From NCBI GenBank assembly GCA_963714275.1, contig CAVQNT010000006.1, forward strand, positions 22,591 through 86,590: DNA of 64,000 bases, given 5' to 3'. How positions within the stretch are numbered: the first letter of the stretch is position 1; every line of letters begins with the position of its first letter. The position numbers and the translations under genes are program-made. Under the pieces are notes generated by a model. That model ran no database searches. It was not told the DNA's origin and was given only the letters and a program-made list of their open reading frames with translations. Source of the stretch: Candidatus Bathyarchaeota archaeon (GTDB taxonomy: Archaea; Thermoproteota; Bathyarchaeia; Bathyarchaeales; DTEX01). Of the stretch, positions 2,744 through 52,380 are shown one piece after another.

Positions 2744-3502
2744 TTGACGATGAACATACTTGAACTGCAGAATGTCGCCATTGAGGTTTCTGGTAAAAAA
2801 ATCTTGGAAGACATTAACCTCGAAATTCCCGAAGGTGAAGTGCACGTTCTTTTCGGTCCAAATGGATCAGGAAAAAGCTCGCTACTCATGACCGTTCTGG
2901 GCATACCGTCCTACAAGGTTACGTCGGGCTCTATATTGTTCAAAGGAAAAGACGTGACCCACATGCCCATAAATGAGAGAGTCAAACTCGGAATGAGTGT
3001 AGCCTTCCAGAACCCTCCAGCCATTCGTGGCGTAAAACTCGGCGGCATACTCGACTATCTGGTTACAGACAAGCAGGAAATAGGGGCACTGATGGAAAAG
3101 GTAAAGTTTCCTCCCGAGTTTCTGGAAAGAGACGTAAACCTAGGATTCTCAGGTGGAGAAGTCAAAAAATCAGAGGTCCTGCAGATTCTCGCTCAGAAAG
3201 GCGACTTTGTTATGCTTGATGAACCAGACTCGGGCGTGGACGTTGAAAATTTGAAGGTTGTCGGAAACCTAATTAATAGCTTGCTTTCGGAAAAATCAGC
3301 CCTTCTAATCACTCATCAAGGTCACATTTTACGGTACGTGAACGCTGATAAAGCCCATGTCCTCATAAAAAGCACAATCGCATGTTCAGGAGAACCCGTA
3401 AACATTCTTACCCAAATTTTGAATGAAGGATACGGTTGGTGCATGAAATGTCCAAAGATCACGAATCTGCAACAAAAGCAAAAGATAAGCCCGCTGCACT
3501 AG
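2744..3502 (+). CDS. sufC: Fe-S cluster assembly ATPase SufC
   Basis: Walker A GPNGSGKSS, ABC signature FSGGEVKK, Walker B FVMLDEPDSGVD. It lies directly upstream of a SufB/D gene. Confidence 0.8.
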   Translation: MTMNILELQNVAIEVSGKKILEDINLEIPEGEVHVLFGPNGSGKSSLLMTVLGIPSYKVTSGSILFKGKDVTHMPINERVKLGMSVAFQNPPAIRGVKLGGILDYLVTDKQEIGALMEKVKFPPEFLERDVNLGFSGGEVKKSEVLQILAQKGDFVMLDEPDSGVDVENLKVVGNLINSLLSEKSALLITHQGHILRYVNADKAHVLIKSTIACSGEPVNILTQILNEGYGWCMKCPKITNLQQKQKISPLH

Positions 3503-4672
3503 GTCCAGACATTAACGTAAACAAATTCACGAGGGAAACAAAAAGCTGGGAATCCTGCCCGATTTCGCAGCTCCCCGAAGATGTGTTGAGACGGGCTTAC
3601 GAAGTGGGCATAGTTCCCGAGAAAGAGTCGCGTTCAGGCACATTTTTCCAGTCTGACCATTCCGTTACCTCGAGAGTAGTTCAAAGCATGTTCGAAGGTA
3701 AAGCCGAAGTCATGAGCACAGCTGACGCCATGAAAAAGTATAACTGGCTCAAAGACTACTGGTGGAAAGTCGTCAAGGTCGACGCGGACAAGTACACGTC
3801 CCTCGCTGAGACGAAATGGGACCAAGGCTACTTCATCAGGATACTGGAAGACCAGAAAGTTATGCTTCCGCTTCAAGCCTGCCTTTTTATCTCTACAAAT
3901 AACCTTGACCAGAATGTCCACAACATCATCATCGCTGAAGCTGGCTCAGAAAGTCAGCTGAATAACAGGCTGTACAACACATCCGAACGTCAACAGCGGA
4001 CTGCACGTTGGAATTTCGGAATTTTTCGTCAAGGAAGACGCGAAGCTCACCTTCACCATGATCCACAATTGGGCGGAAGGATTCGATGTTCGCCCGAGAT
4101 CAGCAGCCATGATCGGGGGCAACGGAGTTTTCGTAAGCAACTACCTATGCTTCAAACCCGTAAAAAGCCTCCAGATGTATCCAACAGCGTACTGCAAGGG
4201 CGTGAACTCGAGAGTTAGCTTCAATAGCATCCTTTACGGCATGAAAGACTCATACATAGATACCGGAGCAAAAGTGGTGCTCCAAAACGAGGGAACAAGA
4301 GGTCAAGTAGTAGCACGGACAATAGCCACCGACAACGCCCAAATCTACGCCCGAGGCTTTCTGCAGGGAGAACACGATGCCAGTAAAGCCCACTTGGAAT
4401 GCCGAGGCTTATTGTTATCCGACAACGCCCAAATTTACGCTATTCCAGAGCTTCTAGCAAAAGCTAAAGGCTCAGACCTTTCGCATGAGGCTGCGGTTGG
4501 AAAAATTTCTGAAGAGCAAGTCCAATACTTAATGGCACGCGGGTTCACCGAAGACGAGGCAACCGCTCTTATAGTCAGAGGATTCATGGATGTAAGCATC
4601 TTTGGGCTGCCCAAGAATTTAGAGAATGAAATCAGACGCATGGTCGACATAACAGCCATTAAAGCCTTGTAG
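3436..4672 (+). CDS. sufB: Fe-S cluster assembly protein SufB/SufD family; frame broken near 3955-3965
   Basis: Pieces 3436-4218 and 4058-4672. Reading the second frame upstream from 3962 gives ITGCTTHPNVNSGLHVGISEFFVKEDAKLTFTMIHNWAEGF. Downstream is LECRGLLLSDNAQIYAIPEL...HEAAVGKISEEQVQYLMARGF, typical of the SufB beta-helix and C-terminus. Confidence 0.75.
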
Positions 4673-11392: not shown

Positions 11393-11511
11393 TGGTGCGG
11401 GGAGCGGGATTTGAACCCGCGAACCCCTAAGGGACAGGCTCCTGAAGCTTGCGCGCCCTTGTTTGTGGTTGTTTGGGTTCTGCGCCTTTGACCTGGCTTG
11501 GCGACCCCCGC
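11393..11511 (-). tRNA. tRNA-Leu(CAG), class II, with a ~31-nt intron inside the anticodon stem and encoded CCA
   Basis: Minus strand reads GCGGGGG TC GCC AAGCCAGGTCAAA GGC G CAG [AACCCAAACAACCACAAACAAGGGCGCGCAA] GC TTCAGGA GCCTG T CCCTTAGGG GTTC GCGGG TTCAAAT CCCGC TCCCCGC A CCA. Removing the bracketed segment gives a perfect CAGGC/GCCTG anticodon stem, loop UUCAGGA and a long variable arm. Confidence 0.75.
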
Positions 11512-36454: not shown

Positions 36455-36840
36455 AATTTTTGCCTCCTACAATCCTATCAGCAACCGCCTTTAAACTGTT
36501 AAAGGTTTCGAAAGAAAATGGCTTCTAGAAGCTGTCTTATTTGTGTAACAACCGAGTTTTCCATTTGTGTAACAAGAAAAAGGTATGGTTTGTCGTCAAC
36601 TGTTTTTTATTGTTGGATCGAGCTAAATGGAAAAATTTCTTTTCTCGCTATTCTGGTTGTATATGTGCATCATATGTTGGAGGAGGGGGATTTACAGCCT
36701 TTTTCTTTGTCAAGATTTTTATTGCAATGACAGCGGGCGGAAGGATTAAGGCTACCAGCAATATAAGCATGAAGGGATTTATCATGTTAAATGTTTTTAG
36801 TAATCATTTTTATTATTTATACCATATTATCCAGTTAAGG

Positions 36841-36914
36841 AGCCTCAGGCGGGATTTGAACCCGCGGTCTCCACCTTACCAAGGTGATGCCCTAACCAGC
36901 TGGGCCACTGAGGC
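36841..36914 (-). tRNA. tRNA-Thr(GGU)
   Basis: Minus strand reads GCCTCAG TG GCCC AGCTGGTTA GGGC A TCACC TTGGTAA GGTGG AGACC GCGGG TTCAAAT CCCGC CTGAGGC T. This is a clean cloverleaf with anticodon GGT and no encoded CCA. Confidence 0.85.
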
Positions 36915-39715: not shown

Positions 39716-40523
39716 CTAACCTGATGGCGACATAAAAGCCCACTCGTAGAAGATGCCTGTTGTGGTGATTACTCTGATACAATATGATGTGTCAGGTTGC
39801 AGCTTCAGTGTCTTCCAGATTATAGTAATATCTTTTGTGGACCCGACGTCGATTGTTGTTGGCAACGTAGGTGAAACAGATGCTTCGGTAGTGGCATTAT
39901 ACCATGTTGCTCCTGGATTTAATCTTATAACAACTGATTGTATCGTTGCAGTGGCGCTTCCTGTATTCCTTACGGTTATCTTAGTTGTATTCTGAGATAC
40001 AATCCATTGCACCATATCTATCATTATTTGTATCTGTGGTGGTTGTGGTGTAGAAGCGATTATTTGGTTTCTGGCGAACTTAACAACTACTGGTAGTTCT
40101 TGTTGTGGTGGAGCACCTTGGTTAATATCAAAAGTCAAAGTTAGAGTTACCGAACTTTTTGCTGGAGTCTGTAATTGTCCAACACCATAATCTCCCTTCT
40201 TGCTCAGGAATTATCACACCACTGACTGAAGCATTTACGTCAATACCTTGAGGTATTTGAGTCTGTCCTTGTCCGTCAAGGAAGTAGACATCCACATCTA
40301 CGATAATGTCTTTATTTGCCGAATTGCGAATTGTTAAGTTCTGGACCTTCGTCTCACCTGCGTATGCAGTAATTGAAAACGTGGATGGTCTTATAGAGAT
40401 TGGTTCATTAATTGTGAGTGTTGCTTGAACGAATAAGATGTCCCATGCCCCTACAACCCCAATGCTGAACAACGATACAAGCAGTACTACCAAGATTAGT
40501 TTCTTAGTCCTTTGCATTTTCAT
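39716..40523 (-). CDS. secreted or membrane-anchored beta-rich protein (possible adhesin/Ig-like); frame broken near 40200
   Basis: Signal/anchor MKMQRTKKLILVVLLVSLFSIGVVGA, then alternating beta-strand-like sequence. Pieces 40128-40523 and 39716-40138 join via SKKGDYGVGQLQTPAKSSVTLTLTFDINQG. Confidence 0.45.
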
Positions 40524-41053: not shown

Positions 41054-42342
41054 TTGGCTCTTAAATGGATTAAAAGAATTTTTGCGAAGGACACAGCTGA
41101 ACCGGGCATCAGAGGAGCTGGAGCCACCAGCCAAGCGGACTTTGGCACTCCGATAAGTGACACTGATCTTCTTTTCGCTGTTAAAAGGGAGCCTGTTGCA
41201 CATCGCATCGTCTTCATGGTTGCGCATGACATTTTTGATAACTGGTTCAGCGTTGACGTTGCAGGCGAAAAAAGGCCTGATACAAGATTTAACGATCAGA
41301 TCCAAACGGTTCTTGATGATCTTGAAGCAAAATCTGTTTTTACGGAGATGGCTGTTTATGAGAGGCTTTACGGTGAAGCAGTCGTCCTCGTCGGTTATTC
41401 TGATTATGGAAAGGACCTTATAAAACCCGTTAAGGATCCTCAAAGCATCGAGGATCTTGTGGCTTACAGTCCTCTTGACTTTAATGTTTCTTCTTCTGAC
41501 GAAGACAGGGATCCGAAAAGTCCTCGTTACGGGCTTCCAGAATTTTACACTTTTGTTCGAGGCAGCCAAACTGTAAGGGTTCATTATAGCCGAGTTATCC
41601 ATTCTGCGACAAGGCTGTTGGATCATCCTTACAGAGGTCTCAGCACCCTTGAACCCGTGTATGATGACCTTACCGTCTTGCGTAACATTCGCTGGGGTAT
41701 GGGTCAAACTATGGTTCGTTACGGTGGCGGTTTCCCTGACATCACATTGAAAGGTAAAGACGCGGACAAGATTGACGACTTCATTATGGGCAAACAGATG
41801 GAGACCGTTAACGCTAGGACATATTTTGTGCATAACGAGCTTCAAGAGCTTGAGTTTAAGGGCGTAGGCGGAGTTACGCTTGACCCAGAAAAGTATTATG
41901 TGCCCATCATGGAAAGCATCAGCGCAGGCTCCGGGATTCCATTAGCCATTTTACGGGGTGCCAGACTGGAGCATTAACTGGTTCAGAGGTTAATGAACGG
42001 GAATATTTCAAGCTCATAAGTGATGCTCAAAGCCGTTACGAGCCTGGAGTCCGAAAATTGCTTGATATGCTTATCGAATGTGGACAGGTCCGTTGGTTCT
42101 ATAATGTGCCCAAGAAATATCGGGTCAGCTGGGGAGGAGGCTTCGAAGTAAACGAGAAGGACCAGGCCTTAACACAACTTTCAGTAGCGCAGGCAATGAA
42201 TCTCCACTCAAACTGGATGACTTTGAATGAGCTTAGAGCAACGATGGATCCACCGCTTCCTGCCCTTCCAAGTCCTCAGGGAGATCTTATTCTCGGGTTG
42301 GAGAAGCTGCAGCAGTCACAGAAATTATTGTCACCTATTTAG
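41054..42342 (+). CDS. portal protein (DUF1073-type); frame broken at about 41957-41960 (GCCAG where GCCCAG is expected)
   Basis: RLYGEAVVLVGYSD, VRVHYSRVIHSATR, and ISAGSGIPLAILRGA then (shifted) QTGALTGSEVNEREYFKLISDAQSRYEPGVRKLLDMLIE. This is the conserved DUF1073 portal core as I recall it. Confidence 0.7.
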
Positions 42343-42344
42343 AG

Positions 42345-43239
42345 ATGGTTGAAATGATGAAGATTGGAACATCGCAAGTTGAGTTGGATTCGACAAAAAT
42401 CTTGAAGGAAGACGATGAAGAATTAGTCCTTCCCGGCATCCTTGCTCGCGAAGGCGTTTTTCCTTATCCTGGAGGACGAGCGTTTAGACCTCGTGAAAGA
42501 CTGAAGTCAAGGCTAAAGACTTTCGAGGTGCCTAGAGTATTCGACTCAGAGACATCCTGATTCTATGGTCTTGACAGATCCTGATTTATGTGTCGGCAAA
42601 GTTGACGGTGTGACTTGGAATGAAGATAAAGGCGAAGTTCACGGTAATGTCCATTTATTCAAAAATTGCTTAACTCCTGAGTTTCTTGCTGGAGTTAAAT
42701 CTGGTGCATTTTCTAAAAATAGCATGGGGTTTCTTTTCAGGGAAGATGCGACCAGTGGCGAATTTAATGGTCAAGCGTATGATTATGTGCAGCGGAAGAT
42801 TCTTGTGGATCATATAGCCGTGGGAGTTCCGAACCCGAGAGATCCAGGTTGCATCCTTGGCGTAGATGATTTTTCAAGTGAAATAAGTGTGAACCTTAAG
42901 GGCGCTGATGCTTGGGAAACAAGTTTCATTAACGACCTGCCTGACTCGTCCTTCGCATACGTCGAGGATGGCGGAAAAAAGGATGATGAAGGCAAAACTG
43001 TTCCCCGAAGCCTTAGGCACCTACCCTACAAAAACGGTCAAGGCACCATTGACCACGACCACCTCGTTAACGCTCTTGCAAGGGTTAGCCAGTCTGCAAC
43101 TTTGCCTGAAGGCGGAAAGACAGCTGCTAAAGACAAATTGTGTGGCGCAATCCGTAGCTGGAACAATGAACACGCTGACAGCAAGATTGAGTCAGAAGTT
43201 TGTGGCGTAACGGGAGATTGTCTCCTGGACGCCTTTTGA
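42345..43239 (+). CDS. DUF2213-like head-morphogenesis protein (putative prohead protease/scaffold-associated); frame broken near 42548
   Basis: LPGILAREGVFPY...HPDSMVLTDPDLCVGKV...NSMGFLFREDATSGEFNGQAYDYVQRKILVDHIAVGVPNPRDPGC matches the DUF2213 pattern (S.G...G...YD..Q..I..nH.A.V...R). It lies immediately after the portal gene. Confidence 0.5.
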
Positions 43240-43369: not shown

Positions 43370-43782
43370 ATGTCAAATCAGGACGGGTCAGATGCGGAAC
43401 AAAACAAAGCCATAAAGGTTACTATTGACCAGGTGATGGCTGAAAACCTAAGTTTGAAGCAGATAGTTCAAGATCTGGACCAAACTGTGAAGGATCTTAC
43501 ATCTCAGCTTAAGGCTGCGAATGACGTGCTTGAAGCGCAAGCGAGGGCGAAGTTGATTGCGGAAATCAAACCCCGCAGCAGATATTCTGACGAGGACTTA
43601 ACGAAACTTTCGCTTGACGACTTAACAAACATCAAGGTTACGCTTGACAACGCTAAAATGTCGAACTTACAAGAACATCCACTTCGGTCCCCTAGGGATT
43701 GATGAAGCGCAAGGACGAGGGACTAACCGTAGGAGACCTATCGGTTGTCACAGAAGCTAAACGCAAAGCAAGGAGCGCATAA
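43370..43782 (+). CDS. coiled-coil scaffolding-like protein; 3' end frame-broken
   Basis: Heptad-rich KQIVQDLDQTVKDLTSQLKAANDVLEAQARAKLIAEIK. Its position between the portal/DUF2213 genes and the capsid genes fits a scaffold. Confidence 0.45.
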
Positions 43783-43784
43783 GT

Positions 43785-44261
43785 ATGCCACAATTTCTCG
43801 TTAAACCCACGAACCAAGTTGTGGTTCAGGGCAACCCGATAAAGGTTGAATACGAAGTTGGAGCGAATGCTACGGCTGCAAAAATGCTTCCTGGAAGACT
43901 TGTAATCTATGACACTGTTGCTAAGGCTGTTAAAGAGGCTGGAGCCGAAGCTGACAACGTTTTAGGATTCCTTGATGTCGCAGCTGAATATCTTGAAGCT
44001 ACACATTACGAGGTAGGCGACCAAGTCTTGGTTGTCATGGGTGAATGTATCGCTAAACTAACTTTGTTGGCAAGCGAAAACGTTGCTCCTGGAGACTGGT
44101 TGGTTGCTGCTGCTGATGGAAAAGTTGCGAAGCAAGCTGTTGGTGCTATGGGGGCTCAGGGAATGCCTGTTGGGCAAGCTTTGGAACTGAGTAATGTTAC
44201 GGTTGACGCTGAGATCTTGGTTCATTGGATTCCGTGCGCTGAGCCTGCTGCTGCAAGTTAA
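43785..44261 (+). CDS. DUF2190-like capsid decoration/cement protein
   Basis: 158 aa, Gly/Ala/Val-rich beta protein (LPGRLVIYD...VLGFLD...VGDQVLVVMGECIAKL...VAPGDWLVAAADGKVAK) directly upstream of the capsid gene. Confidence 0.4.
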   Translation: MPQFLVKPTNQVVVQGNPIKVEYEVGANATAAKMLPGRLVIYDTVAKAVKEAGAEADNVLGFLDVAAEYLEATHYEVGDQVLVVMGECIAKLTLLASENVAPGDWLVAAADGKVAKQAVGAMGAQGMPVGQALELSNVTVDAEILVHWIPCAEPAAAS

Positions 44262-44273
44262 GGGTGATCTGAT

Positions 44274-45152
44274 ATGAAACCGCTTACAAAAGTTGGTTTA
44301 GAAACAGGTTCCTTAACTGATGAAGAACTCCGTTACCTTGACGGCAGAGTTGTTGAAACGGTGAGACCTCTGCTTGTTGGTAGACGGTTGTTCCCAGTGT
44401 TCAGGCTTCCGAACGCAGGAATTAAGACTGTCCGAGGCTGGAAAGAAACGGACATGAGCCAAGCGACGATTGACATGAACGGTCAGGTAGACGCTTTTGA
44501 CAGGATTGAACTCGCAGAATTCGACATCAAAGTGCCAGTGATAGCCAAAGGCTTCAGATTGAATTGGAGAGACATCCTCGCTTCACGTAACGGCGGAATT
44601 CCGATTGACGCCCGAAGCATAGAGAATGCTGCTCGACAATGCGCTGAAGAAGAAGATCAACTACTGTTAACTGGAGAACGGACAAGTTGGAAGGCTCTCG
44701 GAATCGAAGGATTAGCTACTGCTACGGGCAAAGAAACTCAGGGGTCAGCTGGAGCTTGGGGAGCAAACAGCATCGTCGACGTTAGTGCTTGCATTGCTAA
44801 GCTTGAGGCAGGCGGACACTACGGTCCTTACGCTTTAGTCGTGAGGTCAGCGTGGTATGCGAAGCTGAGAGCATTGATTGCTAACACAGGCATCTTTTAC
44901 CTCGAAAAAGTCGCTGAGCTCGTGAAGGCAGGAATCTTCGTGAGCGACAACCTCTATTCAAGCGCTGATGCGACAACAATCGCATTAGTCGTTGAACCAA
45001 CTCAGGAAAACTTTGAGCTCGTAGTCGGACAAGACATGAACACGTGGACAGTTCAAGACGAAAACATGAACACTAAAGGCAAAGTTTACGAGGTCGTTGC
45101 GCCCCGCATCAAAAGACCTGAATCTATCTGTGTTTTGACTGGATTATCTTAA
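44274..45152 (+). CDS. HK97-fold major capsid protein, encapsulin-like
   Basis: 292 aa, alignable by eye along its whole length to family-1 encapsulin shell proteins: LTDEELRYLDGRVVETVRPLLVGRRLFPV; IELAEFDIKVPVIAKGFRLNWRDI; IENAARQCAEEEDQLLLTG; GPYALVVRSAWYAKL; ALVVEPTQENFELVVGQDMNTW...KVYEVVAPRIKRPESICVL. Confidence 0.7.
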   Translation: MKPLTKVGLETGSLTDEELRYLDGRVVETVRPLLVGRRLFPVFRLPNAGIKTVRGWKETDMSQATIDMNGQVDAFDRIELAEFDIKVPVIAKGFRLNWRDILASRNGGIPIDARSIENAARQCAEEEDQLLLTGERTSWKALGIEGLATATGKETQGSAGAWGANSIVDVSACIAKLEAGGHYGPYALVVRSAWYAKLRALIANTGIFYLEKVAELVKAGIFVSDNLYSSADATTIALVVEPTQENFELVVGQDMNTWTVQDENMNTKGKVYEVVAPRIKRPESICVLTGLS

Positions 45153-45228: not shown

Positions 45229-45561
45229 ATGGAGAAAAAAGGATTGCCAGAACTGATAGCGTATGCGGGACCGATAGAGACGACAGATGCTTACGCGACA
45301 GCATTGAAGGTTAAGCTTCCCCCTCAAATCAGCAAGGCCATGGTTCACATTAAGGAGCTTGACGTGAACGATATTGATTGGAAGATTCTCGGCAGCATAG
45401 ATGATGACATCTATTTTGAGGAAAACGCTGAAGCAACAGTCACGAAAGACGATTCAGATGTCCACGAAGTAACGAAAGCGTGGATTTACCTTGACATCCA
45501 GGTGAAGTCTACCGTGTCCAACAATTCAGGCGAGATTGCAGTCGCAGTTTCAGGGGCTTAA
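45229..45561 (+). CDS. hypothetical acidic protein (possible minor head/connector protein)
   Basis: 110-aa ORF immediately after the capsid gene. No recognisable motif. Confidence 0.3.
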   Translation: MEKKGLPELIAYAGPIETTDAYATALKVKLPPQISKAMVHIKELDVNDIDWKILGSIDDDIYFEENAEATVTKDDSDVHEVTKAWIYLDIQVKSTVSNNSGEIAVAVSGA

Positions 45562-45564
45562 GCG

Positions 45565-46410
45565 ATGAGATTCAGGATCTTACCGAAAGTCAAAAGTTTC
45601 AGTGACGCTGCGGGAAACCTTCATTGTCCTGGAGACATCGTAGATCTTCCGCCTAGTTATCTTGGCGAAAATTGGCTTGAGCCAGTTGACAAGGTTGACG
45701 TCAAAAAGACTGAGGCACGTTTGGAACCTTCCAAGCCTGTTGCGGAGAAAGAAGCAGTTGTCCCCTTCGAGACCCCAAAGACGCAGAGGAAGGTAAAAAA
45801 AAAGTTAAAGTCCTAATCGGCGTTCCATGCCTGAACGACAAGGACAGGTATGCAGGTTACAGAGACTTAATCTTATATGCTGCTGAACTGTCGATTGGAG
45901 ACGTAGAACACAGCGTTTATGTTTCTCCGAATTCGAGGGCAATCGAGGTATACGGGATAGTTGAATGCGACAACGACATAGTCAAATATTTTTTGAGCAA
46001 AGATTTTACGTATCTTTGGATGGTTGAGCTTGACACCGTTGTCCCTAAAGACGCTTTCTCTCGAGCTTTTTGGTTTAGACGTTGACATTGCCCTCGGTTA
46101 TTTTCCGAGCCACCGAGACTTTAACAGGCTGATCGCTGGCTGGATCGGTGAAGACGGTAAAGTCTACTATCTTCCACGGTTCGCGTTGAAGGGTCAGGTC
46201 CTGCGTGGCTGGGTTTTCGCTGGGACAGGATGTATGCTTGTTAAAAGGCGTGTCTTCGAGGTTGGGGGAATCCGTTTCAAATACAATCCTGACGTCGGTG
46301 GACCTGACGTTTCATTCATGTTTGATTCTTTGCGAAGAGGGTTTACTGCAGCCCTCCATGGAGACGTAGAATGCGGACACTTGCCTGAATGGCTGTTGAA
46401 GGAGGGTTGA
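45565..46410 (+). CDS. GT-A-fold (GT2-like) glycosyltransferase with an ~80-aa N-terminal extension; joined across an A9 tract (45795-45803) and a second break near 46060
   Basis: The GT frame is open from 45714 but has no ATG/GTG/TTG before VKVLIGVPCLNDKD. It continues LWMVELDTVVPKDA (DxD-like), then GWVFAGTGCMLVKRRVFEVGGIRF. The upstream ORF 45565-45816 ends in the A9 run. Confidence 0.45.
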
Positions 46411-46414
46411 AGGC

Positions 46415-46690
46415 GTGGGTTTGGATAATGCACACTCTGGAACTTCTTCGAAAAAATTGGTTGATAAACATAGAGTTATTGAAAAAAAGATTTTGTTCAC
46501 TCTTTTGAATGGACCTGTGAGACTTCGTGACATTTTGAAACATGCTTACAAAGACTCTGCGCCCGTTTACAGTGGCACCCAGGTTGTTTATTGGTTAAGA
46601 GATAACGGTTACATCCAAAAAACAGGCAAAGGTCATAGCGACCCTTACATGATCACTGAACGGGGACGAAGATACTATGATTGCACCTGA
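46415..46690 (+). CDS. winged-helix DNA-binding protein
   Basis: RVIEKKILFTLLNGPVRLRDILKHAY...VVYWLRDNGYIQKTG (PadR/MarR-like wHTH). Confidence 0.45.
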   Translation: MGLDNAHSGTSSKKLVDKHRVIEKKILFTLLNGPVRLRDILKHAYKDSAPVYSGTQVVYWLRDNGYIQKTGKGHSDPYMITERGRRYYDCT

Positions 46691-47090
46691 CTCCAAAAAG
46701 AAAGAAGATTTTAAAAGAGCACTATTGAGCTGGGAAACAAAACACAGCATCCTCGTCGTAAGGGAAGACGGGAAATTCTTTCAAATTTTTAGGATCCTGA
46801 AATCTCGTAGGAAAATTAGTCCTTGGACCTGCTGGCGTAATGAATGTTTATGCAGTAAACAGTTAAGTCGTCCGCACTTGACTTGTTTCAGCTGCAGAAT
46901 CAGAAGGGTCATTGGTAAAGAGATTCCTCCAATCCTCGAAGTTACACCTTACGTTTTACTGATTCCACGGTACCGGGGAAAGCTGAAGACTTTTCTGGGA
47001 AAGAAGTTCTGCACGTTAGTGAAAGATTTAATCGGTAAAATCCCTTACTATACAGTTAGTGAACTAAACGGTAATCCCCATTTTAGGTGA
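46677..47090 (+). CDS. hypothetical Cys-rich protein
   Basis: 137-aa ORF with the cluster CWRNECLC...CFSC. Confidence 0.3.
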   Translation: MIAPDSKKKEDFKRALLSWETKHSILVVREDGKFFQIFRILKSRRKISPWTCWRNECLCSKQLSRPHLTCFSCRIRRVIGKEIPPILEVTPYVLLIPRYRGKLKTFLGKKFCTLVKDLIGKIPYYTVSELNGNPHFR

Positions 47091-47146
47091 GCTTAGCTAA
47101 TTGGTCTATGAATCTGTTATAGTAGTCTATTGGCTCAAATAACTAT

Positions 47147-47874
47147 CTAGATTTTCCAGAAAGCCATGTATCCCCTTCTTTGTTTTTTCATTTCCTTCAC
47201 TCTTTGTTCTAGGTCAGCTTTGCCTTTTTCATATTCTTCCTTCTTTATCAAATCATCTTCAAACATCTGCTTCAATAGAATAGGTAGAATTTCGGCAACT
47301 GGCGGAGTTATTTGATTAAAAAACTCATCGATTTTTTCTTTAGGTATCATAAAAAGATTCTTAGAAGTTTCTTCGACAAAGGATATAAAGTCTGAAAAAA
47401 TTTCCTTGGCAGACACAAAATCCAACTGTGCGAAATCCATCGGATTTTTCCATTCACTATTCTTATGGTCGACATATAGACAGACTTTCTCGAACCCTTC
47501 TAAATTCATTGACAGCCTCGCCAAGTTCTTTTATCGATTTTTCTATTTCCTGTCTGGACGGCTTTTTCTTGGGATAGACTAGTTCTCCCCTCTTCTGACT
47601 TGCGTAGATGCCAAGGGCGAAGGCTGTTTTAGATTTGTGGTCCATTAAATCCTTTCTTACTTTTTCATCGTATTCAAAAAAACCCACATAAGTCATCGCA
47701 TAAAAATATGCCTTTGCCAGCTTCCTCCATTGCAGTAAAGTATAGGAAGAAAGCATGGGCAAAACTATTATTCTCTGCCAATATGTCTGCGTCTTGCGTA
47801 AGACGATTCACATGATCCATACAGATATCTCTGCCTTTTCTAAAATCAATTTGTTTTAGCATGTTCATCCCCAT
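47147..47874 (-). CDS. AbiV-like HEPN-domain abortive-infection protein; 2 frame breaks
   Basis: Three pieces (47674-47874, 47463-47762, 47147-47524). N-terminal RLTQDADILAENNSFAHAFFLYFTAMEEAGK, then DHKSKTAFALGIY and KVCLYVDH, resemble the AbiV family pattern (from memory). Confidence 0.45.
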
Positions 47875-47888
47875 TCTTCATAATAACA

Positions 47889-48164
47889 TTACAACATACT
47901 ACTGGTTACAATCATATATCTTAATCCACAAGAACCTTGAATGCGAGATATGTTAACAACACGAACGCGCGCTTCATTTCTTCTATACAAAATTCTTCCG
48001 TGAGGTTCCGTAAATAATTTCGTTCCGCATTTCTTACAATAGAAGGTTTTACCACCGAAAAAAATGTTTTTTACTTCATAACAATTTTTGCATATAGTAA
48101 AAGCTAGTGAACTGTAGCCAGCTATAAAATTGGCGCATGTGGTACTCTTGGTGCGCGCACACAC
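47889..48164 (-). CDS. zinc-ribbon protein
   Basis: CKNC...CKKC pairs in a 91-aa ORF with a GTG start. Confidence 0.4.
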   Translation of the reverse strand: MCARTKSTTCANFIAGYSSLAFTICKNCYEVKNIFFGGKTFYCKKCGTKLFTEPHGRILYRRNEARVRVVNISRIQGSCGLRYMIVTSSML

Positions 48165-48262
48165 ACATTTCTAACTAAATGATAAAAATCACAAAAATAT
48201 TTTGTCAAGAACTGTCAAAAATAAAAAATGTCAATTCGTCAATGTCAAAAATCGCAGGCTCA

Positions 48263-49702
48263 CTAACGTATTTTCATTTTGCATATATTACCGAGAAATT
48301 CTTGGTTCAAGGGTTTATTTGGACCAGTGTTTTTCACACTTCTTATCTTTACCTTATAAAATGCTTTTTCGTGCTCTTGAAAATAAGCAGATGTTGTTAG
48401 AATAACTGCATTTACTCTTTTCGTTAGTTTCAGTTTTCCTTTTAATCCGTTTTCAAGAAGCATTAAATCTCTTGCAAGCTCCTTCTCGTCCCTGTAAAAC
48501 CCCATGTTCATTTCGATGTAGATTATTCCAGGTCCCTCTGTGGGTATCTGAGTATAGGCATGATCAAATGAATTAAGAATACCTTTTATTCGATCAGGTA
48601 AGAGCGACGAAACAAACACCACAAGACGGGGATTCTTGTGCTTAGGCTCAGGGGCATTAATCGATACGTTATCTCTTTCCAGATAGAGATCTATTACAGG
48701 ATTTGTCCAATCAAAACTAAATCCATCCATACTTGGTTTGATGTTTTCATCTGAATGGTGATAAATATCTAGCGTAGGTTCATGCATATTAACATTAAAT
48801 TCTCGGAGATCGGGCTTAAAATGACCGTCTATAACATTGTTTAATTTAGGGAATTCTTTCAAAATTATTTGGAATTTATTTGCTGTAAATACCCCGCATT
48901 TTGAGTTTTTAATTGAAGTTTGAATGTATTCTATTAGAAAGTCTTTATCTGCCGTTGTTAGATCTGAATCTGTTTTAACAACAGCAGCGTAATTTTTCCC
49001 AAGGTTATCTAAAGCCTTCAGAACATTTACTAAGATTTCATCCCAGAGGTATTGGTTGCGCATGTCTCTTTGTGACTTCTTATCTTTTTGCTTGCATTCA
49101 ACATAGACTTTCTCTCCATCTTTTTCAACGCACATATCTGGCGTCTTCTCTTTTTCTTCCTTAATAAAGCAAACTTGGTATCCTGCTCGCTTGAGAGAAG
49201 ATGCTACTTTTATCTCATATACAGCCTTCTCAAAACTCACAGAATCTGTTAATCTTGTTCTCCACATTTTTCGAGTACTATTTTTTATCTTTCTGCCATC
49301 CTTGCTAATCAATGCAATAGATTCTATTTCCATTAAATTATTACCAAGATCAAATAACTCCAACAATTCCTTTGTAAAAGAATGGGTTTGCTTTTGAAGG
49401 AGACTTTGATAATTAGGATAGCCTTTTCGCCACAAAGCAATAAGAGGATTAGGAGTTGGGCTGATCAGATGCCCATATTTCTTAGGTTTATGATCTGTAC
49501 TTGCTTTCGCTATAATTATTGGTTTGTGCTCAGAAACCTTGAAAAATTCTTCCCCAGTAGTAGATACGACCTTTTCTATGGCTAGGCGAATGCTATCTAT
49601 TGTTATTTTCCATTCCTTGTAAGTCATAATTTCAATCGACGATGAAATAAAATGTACTTTAACTTTTATATAGCGTGCGCTGGTAGATACAAAAAGAGTC
49701 AA
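48263..49702 (-). CDS. large hypothetical protein with a PD-(D/E)xK nuclease-like core (probable start at ATG 49627)
   Basis: FEKAVYEIKVASSLKRAGYQVCFIKEEKEKTPDMCVEKDGEKVYVECKQK has the E...PD...ExK arrangement. The remaining ~300 aa have no motif I recognise. The gene is AT-rich. Confidence 0.4.
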   Translation of the reverse strand: MTLFVSTSARYIKVKVHFISSSIEIMTYKEWKITIDSIRLAIEKVVSTTGEEFFKVSEHKPIIIAKASTDHKPKKYGHLISPTPNPLIALWRKGYPNYQSLLQKQTHSFTKELLELFDLGNNLMEIESIALISKDGRKIKNSTRKMWRTRLTDSVSFEKAVYEIKVASSLKRAGYQVCFIKEEKEKTPDMCVEKDGEKVYVECKQKDKKSQRDMRNQYLWDEILVNVLKALDNLGKNYAAVVKTDSDLTTADKDFLIEYIQTSIKNSKCGVFTANKFQIILKEFPKLNNVIDGHFKPDLREFNVNMHEPTLDIYHHSDENIKPSMDGFSFDWTNPVIDLYLERDNVSINAPEPKHKNPRLVVFVSSLLPDRIKGILNSFDHAYTQIPTEGPGIIYIEMNMGFYRDEKELARDLMLLENGLKGKLKLTKRVNAVILTTSAYFQEHEKAFYKVKIRSVKNTGPNKPLNQEFLGNICKMKIR

Positions 49703-50111
49703 TTATTCTGATAATTAACAAAGCACGCTTTATTGTCTAGTTAGTCTATTTTTTTTTTTAGTTGCTTTTTTGAGAATATCTACCATATAATCATGTAGCG
49801 TTTTTCCTTCTAAGGCTGCTTTTGAGACATGATACATGTTTTCATCATTCGTACACATGTAATATTGTTAAAGTCCCTCCCTAACCACTACACTTTTCTG
49901 TATTTGGAATCATTTGCCCTATGAGACTATGGACAGATATTTTACTAATACTGTTTCAGGATATCCATAAAAAATAAAAAAAACACCAATATATAGTATT
50001 ATATATAATCTCCCCCTTTTCTGGGCATTTTATATACCATAAAACATATATGTTGGAAAACTATACTTTTACAATATATATCCAAAGTATAAGAAATGTG
50101 GAATAAGACTA

Positions 50112-50819
50112 TTGCCACTATATAGGATTCAAAGGGATGATGTGTTGCGTAAAGAAGAGATAGATAGTCTCTTGAATCAATGCACACAAAACTTAATTGA
50201 TGGAAAAAAAGTAATTGAAAAAGAGTATGGATTATTTCCTATCAAGTTTAGCCCACCAATGATTCAATGTTTCATTGCACTTGAATGGCTGTTTGGCAAA
50301 CGGATAAGGGAAACATTAAGGCTTAGGCGTCAAGATGTTTATTGGGATGATGAATACCTTTGTGTCAACTTCACTGTCCAAAAGAAGAAGAATAGAAAGG
50401 CAACTTCAGCACCACAGAGGACTTTAAAGAAAATATCATTAAGCAATCCTTACACACGATATATCATTGACTACGTTTCCACAATAACTGATGGATGGAT
50501 ATTCAAGGGTGCAAAGGGAAGGCGTGAGAAAACAGTATATTGGAAAGATGATGAGGGGAAAATAATAAAGTCCTATCATTATGTTGATGAGGATGAGGGG
50601 CGTTTATCTCAGGAGTATGCCTTACAGATTTTAAAAGCATTGGATATGAACATTTGTTGCCATCTTTTCCGTCACAGTTTAGCAACACTAATGGCTGAAC
50701 ATGAAGCAACCCAAGAAGATTTAATGAATTGGTTCGATTGGGACCGGGTTGATACAGCTCATAATTATGTTAGGGGTGGACCAAGGATGACAAAGAAGTG
50801 GAGTGACAGAACATGGTAA
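50112..50819 (+). CDS. tyrosine recombinase/integrase (short form)
   Basis: FGKRIRETLRLRRQDV (Arg I), CCHLFRHSLATLM (HxxR), and VDTAHNYVRG (Tyr). Confidence 0.7.
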   Translation: MPLYRIQRDDVLRKEEIDSLLNQCTQNLIDGKKVIEKEYGLFPIKFSPPMIQCFIALEWLFGKRIRETLRLRRQDVYWDDEYLCVNFTVQKKKNRKATSAPQRTLKKISLSNPYTRYIIDYVSTITDGWIFKGAKGRREKTVYWKDDEGKIIKSYHYVDEDEGRLSQEYALQILKALDMNICCHLFRHSLATLMAEHEATQEDLMNWFDWDRVDTAHNYVRGGPRMTKKWSDRTW

Positions 50820-50836
50820 GGGAGGTGACTTGAGCA

Positions 50837-51049
50837 ATGAATAAAATATCAAAATGGAGTAGATTAGATTATTATTTCCATGAGAATTGGTTCCATAAAT
50901 ACATCCATAGAAAACTAAGAGGTGAGGATGTTAAGCTGGCAAGACAACTCCTGAAGCAACATCCAGATTGGAGTAAGAGAGAATGTGTGGAGCAGGCTAC
51001 ATCAATGATGCTTAGGAAGAGGGCTGAAGAAAAGTTGGAGAGAGTTTAA
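50837..51049 (+). CDS. hypothetical small protein (HPDWS family, copy 1)
   Basis: 70-aa ORF reading ...KYIHRKLRGEDVKLARQLLKQHPDWSKRE... Confidence 0.4.
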   Translation: MNKISKWSRLDYYFHENWFHKYIHRKLRGEDVKLARQLLKQHPDWSKRECVEQATSMMLRKRAEEKLERV

Positions 51050-51064
51050 AGGAGGTGATAAAGA

Positions 51065-51233
51065 ATGAATAAGCTCTTTTATGAAACTACAGGAGTATGT
51101 CCACAATAAAGAGGCAGAGGAAAAAATCAAATTAACACAGAAACTGAAGAAGGAGCACCCTGATTGGAGTGATGACGCAATCTGGGTAGCAGCTACAATG
51201 AAGGTCAATGAGTGGAGAATGGAAAGACTTTAA
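51065..51233 (+). CDS. hypothetical small protein (HPDWS family, copy 2); frame broken near 51090
   Basis: MNKLFYE then (shifted) LQEYVHNKEAEEKIKLTQKLKKEHPDWSDDAIWVAATMKVNEWRMERL*. It is clearly paralogous to the preceding ORF. Confidence 0.35.
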
Positions 51234-51603
51234 CATATTAAGTAAAATTGGTGTGGATAGCGAATATTTGGAATCTTCGAACGTCCCAAATGTTCGGTAA
51301 CATGTCTAGACTTGGAATCTGGACTATAAAATAAAAAAAATTCTATCTATTTTAATGAACAATGATTGAATATAATGTTAGAACTATATTTTTTGGCCAG
51401 TTTGAGCAATTGAGTTGATGTGATACAACAATAATGAGCCTAAAACCAGTGATAGTGATGTGATAAATCTCGTTGTATTCATAGAGTATTGAAAAAGTGT
51501 GTAGATATTCACATAGTAGGATAAAGAACCTTGTAAATGAAGATTAGGTATTGAAACAGATGATGATACTATAAGGGCTGTCGCCCTTTAACCTAACCCT
51601 GAA

Positions 51604-52380
51604 TCATGTCAAATCCTCATAAAAATAGCGAAAGTCAGGACGCCAGAAATTGTGAAATGGTTTCAAACCAAACACCTTATCAACGTTAAAGATTTTAATA
51701 TCCCTCAAGTAAATTTGCATCAACCTTAACCATCTAGGCACATGAATCACTTGTTTTCTACCCATCATACAAACTTTTTCAGTTCGTTTACCATCAGCAA
51801 CTATGAAATAATTAGCCTTTCTCCAAACTGCAATGTACTTGTAATGACCTTGTAACTCAAAATCAATACCAACGTCCTTTGTGACTTTTTCTGATATTTC
51901 CTTAGCCAAATCATTTGTTATTCCACTAACGTAAAGGCTATCAGTGTGACCAAGTAAGACCTTGCCATTGTTCTCTTTGATTATCCTTACGATATCTTGT
52001 ATAACACCCTCTGTAATCTCGGAAATTTGCCCACCCATGTTAACCATAATGATGTTAAGGTTGTAACATTCAATCATTTGGGCTCTTGTCAAGTTTCCAT
52101 TGTGGAAGATAATTTTGATTGCATCTGGATACATAAGAAGTTCATTTATTGTTATATCCCATCTCTCTGGGCTGGCATAACTATACCTTGCCCAATTCCA
52201 TACTTGACCAACAATGAGCTTATCTCCCGCCCACGCAAATAGGTCAACACCAGCCTCCCAGACTTTGTGTACTTGGACGTTATACCCTAATATGGCAATA
52301 ACAATTGCAGACTACTCTCTCCCCAATACTGCCTGTGTACAAATTATGATACATTTTTTTGGGATAGGAAGGTAACTCAT
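51604..52380 (-). CDS. calcineurin-like metallophosphoesterase (phage Ser/Thr-phosphatase-like), with an in-frame TAG at 52312-52314
   Basis: Ordered motifs GVDLFAWAGDKLIVG (GD), IIFHNGN (GN), and VLLGHTDS (GHxx), with spacing like small MPEs. Motif I (DxH) is not recognisable (AILGYNVQVH). Confidence 0.4.

Follow-up and report, generated by a model that had tools for sequence, protein, structure and literature searches.

Family 1 encapsulins form T=1, T=3 or T=4 shells of 24-42 nm. The general idea that viral capsids can be encapsulin-like is already published (PMC8346489; bioRxiv 10.1101/2025.06.18.659913). In S. solfataricus a family 1 encapsulin located in a defective HK97-like provirus was called 'transitional', and the same study warned of phage false positives (PMC8346489). 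Viral major capsid proteins (MCPs) matched only by the Linocin_M18 family have been described for VerdaV2, Poseidoniales viruses and tailless mini viral entities, in a work that argues that evolution went in both directions and compares scaffold with cargo in general terms, with no mention of targeting peptides (bioRxiv 10.1101/2025.06.18.659913). The locus analyzed here lies in a 64,000-nucleotide stretch (referred to as the window) of contig CAVQNT010000006.1 from a Candidatus Bathyarchaeota archaeon, and its central gene (44274-45152, + strand) starts with ATG and encodes an encapsulin-like MCP of the HK97 fold with 292 amino acids (aa). This open reading frame (ORF) very probably encodes the MCP of a tailed Bathyarchaeia virus (Caudoviricetes), present here as an integrated head module of ~6 kb and belonging to the viral lineage nearest to family 1 encapsulins. 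The scaffolding protein encoded in the same module carries a C-terminal motif that resembles the targeting peptides of encapsulin cargo.

The original prediction held that this protein aligns with encapsulin shell proteins along its full length, and comparison with the T. maritima encapsulin (sequence identical to 3DKT) bore this out, every named block being present. The N-terminal block reads LTDEELRYLD in the window MCP and LTEKQWQEID in T. maritima, the second block IENAARQCAEEED and LEETVRKVAEFED, the third GPYALVVRSAW and GPYTLVINTDRW, and the fourth ALVVEPTQENFELVVGQD and ALVVSERGGDFKLILGQD, respectively. Pfam PF04454 Linocin_M18 matched the protein at 1.4e-32 and 113 bits (gathering score 24; profile positions 11-252 of 253) and NCBIfam NF041155 encap_f1 at 148.4 bits (curated cut-off 100; profile positions 7-261 of 261), while the phrog_264 major head protein family reached 57 bits. 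When PDB sequences were searched with phmmer, M. xanthus EncA was matched with E=1.9e-37 over residues 12-290, the T=4 shell of Q. thermotolerans was also among the best matches, and no phage capsid appeared in the list. An AF2 model of the MCP (mean predicted local distance difference test score (pLDDT) 67, predicted TM-score (pTM) 0.60) was good in the core and poor in the E-loop and the N-terminus, with a predicted N-helix at residues 16-33 (pLDDT only about 60). All of its 50 best PDB matches in Foldseek were family 1 encapsulins (E~1e-24, TM-score 0.77-0.85, 30-32% identity), and the best match among predicted viral structures reached E~4e-15 at 12-20% identity. The length of 292 aa, also put forward as encapsulin-like, is so, but has no discriminating value, because cultured Lactobacillus phage LBR48 likewise has an MCP of 292 aa. 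The special affinity to encapsulins stands, as these match the window MCP far better than catalogued viral proteins do. At the level of sequence, the likeness to family 1 encapsulins is far above chance and spans the whole protein.

The genes around the MCP are those of a virus head. Profile searches identified portal, scaffold and decoration-type genes upstream of it, as had been predicted, together with a protease gene, and likewise agreed with the prediction that no cargo-type gene (ferritin-like, DyP) is adjacent; hemerythrin or another enzyme was absent from this position too. Because a cargo gene is absent and morphogenesis genes are present, the protein is best regarded as a viral MCP and not as an encapsulin. 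A protein search returned 328 homologues, the best 120 of which were 58-90% identical and ~292 aa long, with some bearing the NCBI name 'family 1 encapsulin [Candidatus Bathyarchaeota archaeon]'. Among 1.84 billion cluster representatives, 822 clusters at 50% identity were found at E<=1e-3, their identity to the window MCP sliding smoothly from 53% to 28%, and in the genome collection all loci more than 50% identical belonged to metagenome-assembled genomes (MAGs) of Bathyarchaeota/Bathyarchaeia. Relatives with 71-86% identity display a recurring intact order of portal (430-445 aa), protease (352-374 aa), scaffold (138-170 aa), gp53-like gene (158 aa) and MCP. Three viral contigs from IMG/VR, 38-44 kb in size, encode MCPs that are 66-73% identical to that of the window. 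One of these (L006, 38.7 kb, MCP 73% identical) carries an HK97-gp10-like neck protein, a Phage_tube_2 tail tube and a tape-measure gene and is therefore a siphovirus-type virus; its terminase was matched only weakly. The tape-measure-like protein of this contig (L006 16900-19305) contains a PT-HINT/intein-splicing domain near its C-terminus.

More distant relatives fall into the same kind of context. All sampled members of three further clades, designated B (P0137), C (P0181) and D (P0125, P0179), reside in viral head modules of the same order, in which a protease and/or portal and a cement/decoration-like protein accompany the same MCP type; some of these modules also include a Terminase_6 gene (Terminase_6N) and tail genes. 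P0135, from the outer part of the window's own clade A, has a virus-like context as well. Genes for methyltransferase, radical-SAM, glycosyltransferase and sugar-epimerase proteins were observed in or near the head modules of other clades (L038 3090-6566, L039 5205-10234, L040 9133-10685) and hint at capsid or DNA modification. The next group, with 29-32% identity, comprises Aquificota in which the gene lies among cellular genes. These encapsulin-like Aquificota genes (41% identical to EncA) are directly preceded by a conserved FAD-dependent geranylgeranyl-reductase-like gene (L029 207-2160, L033 8930-10840), possibly an uncharacterized cargo type, and no classical cargo or targeting-peptide protein was encoded within 10 kb of them. 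A tie to deposited archaeal viruses was sought and dropped, since among 50,697 phage records only bacterial phage MCPs with 20-29% identity were retrieved.

A neighbor-joining tree of the 150 best cluster representatives (134 full-length), with one T=1 encapsulin sequence, resolved five groups. These were clade A with the window MCP, clades B, C and D, and clade E, in which M. xanthus EncA and the Aquificota proteins are joined by T. maritima on a long branch. When the cultured phages LBR48 and StAshley, both sharing the common synteny, served as outgroups, clade A was distinct in 185 of 200 bootstraps, clade E was devoid of known viral sequences in 195, and clade E and T. maritima stood together in 174. 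The suggestion that this protein is a singular intermediate, a close encapsulin relative still tied to a portal, did not hold up: clade A was the specific sister of encapsulins in 1/200 bootstraps only, and that candidate placement was dropped. Nor is the window family unique, as at least four viral clades have this MCP type and gene order in common, at roughly the same distance from encapsulins (27-32% mean identity for several of them). Family 1 encapsulins thus behave as one group and the window MCP is an ordinary member of one viral clade.

Pairwise scores on their own would give another picture, in which the virus is nested within family 1 encapsulins, because EncA is 32% identical (~135 bits) to the window MCP and only 23% (~64 bits) to the T. 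maritima encapsulin. Together with the bidirectional transitions proposed in bioRxiv 10.1101/2025.06.18.659913, these scores are what speaks for the reverse direction of evolution, namely that a viral ancestor captured a cellular family 1 encapsulin and turned it into its capsid protein. The low score between EncA and T. maritima is, however, due to the long T=1 branch and not to nesting, and in the 174 bootstraps mentioned the EncA type and T. maritima form a virus-free group outside of which at least four viral clades, LBR48 and StAshley are placed. As all viral clades possess a common multi-gene head synteny, vertical viral inheritance is simpler than capture, and we regard the reverse direction as very unlikely. 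By the sequence comparisons made here, the broad lineage to which the window MCP belongs would be among the viruses the closest relative of family 1 encapsulins, and one that curated encapsulin models accept.

This acceptance has consequences for annotation. The NCBIfam model NF041155, an 'equivalog' model, matched 59/59 MCPs of the clade at about 100 bits or more, and MCPs such as P0010 and P0022 in Bathyarchaeota MAGs are already named 'family 1 encapsulin nanocompartment shell protein' by NCBI. Viral capsid proteins are in this way systematically misannotated, and archaeal encapsulin censuses that use NF041155 without a check of the context would be inflated by proviruses. At the same time, a dense set of viral relatives in which portal, protease and scaffold are retained is useful for rooting the origins of encapsulins.

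Encapsulin cargo is loaded via C-terminal targeting peptides that are bound by the N-helix and the P-domain of the shell protein (PMC11664910). The targeting peptides of M. xanthus are PEKRLTVGSLRR and SHPLTVGSLRR, others are TVGSLIQ in Q. thermotolerans, GSLGIGSLR in H. ochraceum and GGDLGIRK in T. maritima, and the consensus for DyP is GSLxIGSLK (PMC10960027). In the structure 8TK7 the L, V and L of RLTVGSL fill pockets P1-P3, and EncA contacts the peptide through R28, R34, D38, D213 and D243 (bioRxiv 10.1101/2023.07.26.550694). The scaffold of the window contains an LTVGDL motif in its C-terminal region (43723-43740, + strand) that resembles the LTVGSL targeting-peptide core, retaining the residues for all three pockets, with S to D as the sole change. 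Translation of 43705-43782 gives KRKDEGLTVGDLSVVTEAKRKARSA up to the stop codon (also given as ...KDEGLTVGDLSVVTEAKRKARSA). The LTVGDL core is present in the scaffolds of the window, L001, L003, L006 and the entire core of clade A, and the clade-D virus L038 has LTVGNL in a scaffold ending in ...EDTLTVGNLYHKPQEEE. The motif is present in 87 of the 89 scaffold homologues (43-100% identical), in 85 of them as exact LTVGDL, and always lies 11-15 residues before the C-terminus; the two homologues without it are truncated or frameshifted products.

The motif was specific to scaffolds. In a survey of 3647 stop-terminated reading-frame segments from 44 sequences, the strict pattern L[TS][VI]GxL, required to lie among the final 45 residues, was detected in 16 segments, all 16 of them scaffolds, and was absent from the ~3630 control segments, making the scaffold the sole protein with a targeting-peptide-like motif among the reading-frame segments of all loci. 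Variants of the motif were LTIGDQ, LTVGDM and WTVGDL as well as a shortened GL(I/L)DLY in one subclade, and in other clades the protease-scaffold fusions terminate with PTVGVW or PSIGNW. On the side of the shell, the peptide contact R28 of EncA corresponds to R31 of the window MCP (R or K in 51/59 clade members), R34 to R37 (59/59) and D243 to D254 (59/59). A targeting-type motif on viral scaffolds was not found reported in open-access papers and bioRxiv, a scope that leaves subscription journals largely outside, and the link between the scaffold LTVGDL and cargo peptides appears to be new.

From the observed gene content, synteny and homology we infer the following assembly steps. The MCP would co-assemble with the scaffold protein around the portal, whereupon the scaffold C-terminal peptide (D/E)xGLTVGDLSVVTxAKRK would dock into a pocket between the N-helix and P-domain of the MCP, the place where family 1 encapsulins bind the LTVGSL-type cargo peptide. 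The protease would then clear the scaffold, DNA would be packaged and the gp53/cement-like protein would decorate the shell. Encapsulin cargo loading would, on this model, be an exaptation of scaffold docking. We put forward, tentatively and at somewhat less than even chances, that family 1 cargo loading may descend directly from viral scaffold docking, with the peptide (LTVGSL/GSL type) having moved onto enzymes and the procapsid having become an enzyme container. If true, the Bathyarchaeia viruses and the LTVGNL clades would keep the ancestral state at the level of sequence and would constitute a first molecular 'missing link' for cargo targeting. The LTVGDL peptide makes both the analogy of scaffold and cargo and the origin of cargo loading experimentally testable, and if an exchange of peptides works, it would explain how cargo targeting originated and offer orthogonal peptide-shell pairs for nanocompartment engineering.

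Several points weigh against the interpretation of this locus as a viral head whose scaffold docks like cargo. The AF2 model is moderate (pLDDT 67; N-helix about 60) and possibly biased towards encapsulin structures, and the tree is a simple neighbor-joining tree of 150 best cluster representatives with a single T=1 encapsulin sequence. Two of the EncA contacts are not conserved, D38 being replaced by P41 and D213 by A219, and the basic residues of the viral peptide follow after a 7-residue spacer while in EncA cargo they come directly after the motif. Docking is deduced from a 6-residue motif and three conserved contact residues. Co-variation of motif and MCP, a point in favor of docking, was observed in an altered Bathyarchaeota subclade (L016-L020, L023; MCP 50-54% identical), in which the scaffold carries NEGL(I/L)DLY...R(I/M)K(R/K) instead of GLTVGDL and the MCPs have D254 changed to E, P32-L33 to Q-K and mostly R38 to N; this is a single lineage-level event and weak evidence. 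Finally, neither a terminase nor tail genes were detected anywhere in the window, whose copy of the module is of doubtful completeness.

The extent of the element is given by its homology to related elements, which within the window is confined to 41051-about 47030 (~6 kb). A terminase was not detected anywhere in the window by flank annotation or comparison with relatives, an integrase homologous to that of the relatives was not found in it, and no annotation was obtained from PHROG and Pfam for the flanks at 37-41 kb and 47-52 kb. The window copy is either an incomplete provirus or an element with head genes only. Bacterial capsid-forming phage-inducible chromosomal islands (cf-PICIs) encode an integrase and their own head genes, lack tails and the terminase large subunit and depend on a helper. 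The window element and L003, its closest relative, could likewise be head-only integrative satellites that encode their own capsid and obtain terminase and tails from a helper virus. The window lacks a terminase large subunit and tail genes, and L003 has a tyrosine integrase 1.4 kb upstream of its portal with no terminase in between, but the contigs L003, L004 and L005 are just 8-12 kb in size and the absent genes may lie off the contig. Three L003 genes located 3' of the head module, for 117, 277 and 342 aa, resemble neither the tail regions of complete relatives nor any PHROG or Pfam family, yet could be divergent tail genes. A short tyrosine integrase is also encoded in the window (50112-50819) and the source contig apparently holds two copies of the module; this integrase is, however, not homologous to that of L003 and sits in a separate low-GC stretch, no attachment (att) repeats were found around the element, and no helper virus is known. 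We therefore consider a satellite unlikely and prefer a tailed virus as the source of the module.

The portal gene, the first of the module, consists of two ORFs (41054-41977 and 42058-42342; overall 41054-42342, + strand) separated by a single-base indel near 41960, with the frames joining as ...ILRGA/QTGALTGSEVNEREY. It matches PF06381 Phage_portal_3 with 95 bits and phrog_146 with 121 bits, and L003 has an intact portal of 430 aa with which both pieces share 78-82% identity. The head maturation protease of the DUF2213/Pa193_gp24 type (42345-43239, + strand; indel near 42530) matches PF09979 with 26.8 bits as well as PHROG head maturation protease families. In tblastn its L003 counterpart aligned in separate frames over residues 1-57 with 82% and residues 60-374 with 40% identity, the C-terminal two thirds being diverged and shorter than in L003. 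The coiled-coil scaffolding protein gene (43370-43782, + strand) contains two single-base insertions, so that the 138-aa scaffold of L003 was matched in three frames (tblastn), and its position between the protease and the decoration gene is kept in all relatives. The intact minor capsid/decoration-type gene (43785-44261, + strand) encodes an XM1 gp53-like protein (PF23982, 30.5 bits) 85% identical to the 158-aa gene of L003, and its counterpart in other clades matches PF22758 Phage_cement. Two small conserved genes for 110 aa and 83 aa follow 3' of the MCP (45229-45816, + strand; 87% and 56% identical to their L003 counterparts), the 83-aa gene being conserved also in L001, L007, L010, L014 and L015. 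A conserved 178-aa head-module gene (45888-46410, + strand), split by an indel near 46065 and matched by L003 in two frames with 79% and 86% identity (tblastn), has homologues 3' of the MCP at 21 places in other loci; no family annotation was found for it, and it is possibly a connector candidate. The last two genes in common with L003 (~80-91 aa and ~132-137 aa; 46415-47090, + strand) were delimited by tblastn to 46460-46684 and 46692-47030.

Compared to the intact L003, the portal, protease, scaffold (twice) and 178-aa genes are each affected by single-base indels, and the MCP, decoration and 110-aa genes are uninterrupted. The host SecY gene is split as well (60336-61373, profile positions 1-187, and 61102-61761, positions 204-306), as are a GFO/IDH/MocA oxidoreductase gene (53084-55262) and probably SufBD (3436-4672). 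Because the essential host SecY is frameshifted too, the indels of the head genes are attributed to sequencing or assembly errors and therefore carry no evolutionary message; the frameshifts of the window are assembly noise. Single-base indels are frequent in the 544,787-bp source contig, and pseudogene calls in the window are therefore unsafe. A decaying provirus that keeps only its MCP intact was accordingly dropped as an explanation, host SecY and oxidoreductase being broken alike and all indels being single-base.

The same observations bear on domestication under way, the possibility that the host retains the remnant because the MCP now serves as a nanocompartment, an incipient encapsulin. 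The head module alone remains, its MCP, decoration gene and 110-aa gene are whole and its portal, protease and scaffold interrupted, but single-base indels that also break the essential SecY are silent on selection. That the MCP passes curated encapsulin thresholds, and that a precedent exists in S. solfataricus (PMC8346489), has to be set against the absence of a cargo gene or targeting-peptide enzyme nearby, the portal, protease and scaffold still being in order, an interrupted MCP product in the second copy, apparently on the same contig, and the presence of the same protein (66-73% identical) in viral contigs of 38-44 kb, one of them annotated as a complete tailed virus. Domestication is very improbable on this balance, and the window MCP is preferably viewed as that of a virus. 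The second copy of the module lies outside the window and is represented by an MCP product of 199 aa (P0059, 93% identical) and a scaffold product of 92 aa (P0353), and the host genome probably holds two copies of the head module, apparently on the same 544,787-bp contig. An alternative view of P0059 as an MCP broken in a sister genome was abandoned, since P0059 most likely represents the second copy within one and the same assembly, and noise could account for its truncation. Two MCP copies were found in other Bathyarchaeota MAGs as well (L014/L015, L018/L023, L019/L020 and L026/L027).

The host is archaeal according to uS5_euk_arch (291 bits), an archaeal SecY and an archaeal CMP kinase, and the named relatives of its uS5, with 76-86% identity, all belong to Bathyarchaeia/Bathyarchaeota. 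The flanks of the module include a tRNA-Thr gene (36839-36914), and no repeat joining it to the integrase region was found, so that this candidate pair of att sites was discarded. Upstream of the portal, two small adjacent genes lie on the opposite strand (39716-40523, - strand), of which one begins with a hydrophobic stretch resembling a signal peptide and the other has weak CARDB/Ig-like matches. A stretch of low GC (34-36%) with unannotated reverse-strand genes abuts the head module (47100-52200) and may be a separate integrated island; within it, 48263-49702 encodes a 479-aa protein with a possible PD-(D/E)xK-like 'D...ECK' motif. A 116-nt Rfam tRNA match (11396-11511, - strand, 32.6 bits) that was missed by ARAGORN is probably an intron-containing archaeal tRNA.

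Among known systems, the 'Fuxiviridae' and 'Kunpengviridae' share the host class with the window family and are tailed viruses with HK97 MCP, portal, terminase, tail tube and in some cases an integrase; the Bathyarchaeia virome paper that describes them does not mention encapsulin similarity (PMC10541130). The cultured phages LBR48 (Lactobacillus) and vB_BpoS-StAshley (Brevundimonas), with MCPs of the PHROG 264 type, exhibit distant full-length homology (20-26% identity) and, like the window family, the order terminase, portal, protease, small structural protein and MCP. In contrast to the window family their hosts are bacterial, they are far less similar to the window MCP than encapsulins are, and they have no LTVGxL motif, although a 568-aa protein upstream of the StAshley MCP ends in the loosely similar ...GTRVGVHKSRTH. 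VerdaV2-type MCPs are likewise viral HK97 proteins of temperate elements whose sole Pfam coat-clan match is the encapsulin family. The dominant mini-genome clade of that kind, however, has genomes of ~9 kb from the human gut without portal, terminase or tails, whereas the window family has portal and protease and its relatives have tails, and neither VerdaV2 nor any archaeal virus in the phage collection matched the window MCP at E<=1e-3. The S. solfataricus case likewise concerns an archaeal Linocin_M18-type shell protein in a provirus-derived context, but is by description a fossil provirus whose protein is treated as an encapsulin, while the window family supplies the MCP of complete tailed-virus contigs and has a module that is intact once assembly noise is set aside.

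The T=3/T=4 encapsulins (EncA 4PT2/7S20/8TK7, Q. thermotolerans 6NJ8 and B. methanolicus 9FY6) show full-length homology to the window MCP (30-32%, phmmer E~1e-37 to 1e-33), and as predicted for the latter an N-terminal helix replaces the N-arm. From the genome sizes of HK97 and lambda, the 38-44 kb of the relatives would probably imply a capsid larger than those of encapsulins, with T=7. The Arg, Arg and Asp of the peptide site are common to both, and each system has a partner protein with an LTVG(S/D)L peptide in its C-terminal region. They differ in that T=3/T=4 encapsulins are accompanied by cargo enzymes and no portal, protease or scaffold, whereas the window has no cargo and a head module, and the peptide that encapsulin systems carry on an enzyme is found on the scaffold in the virus.

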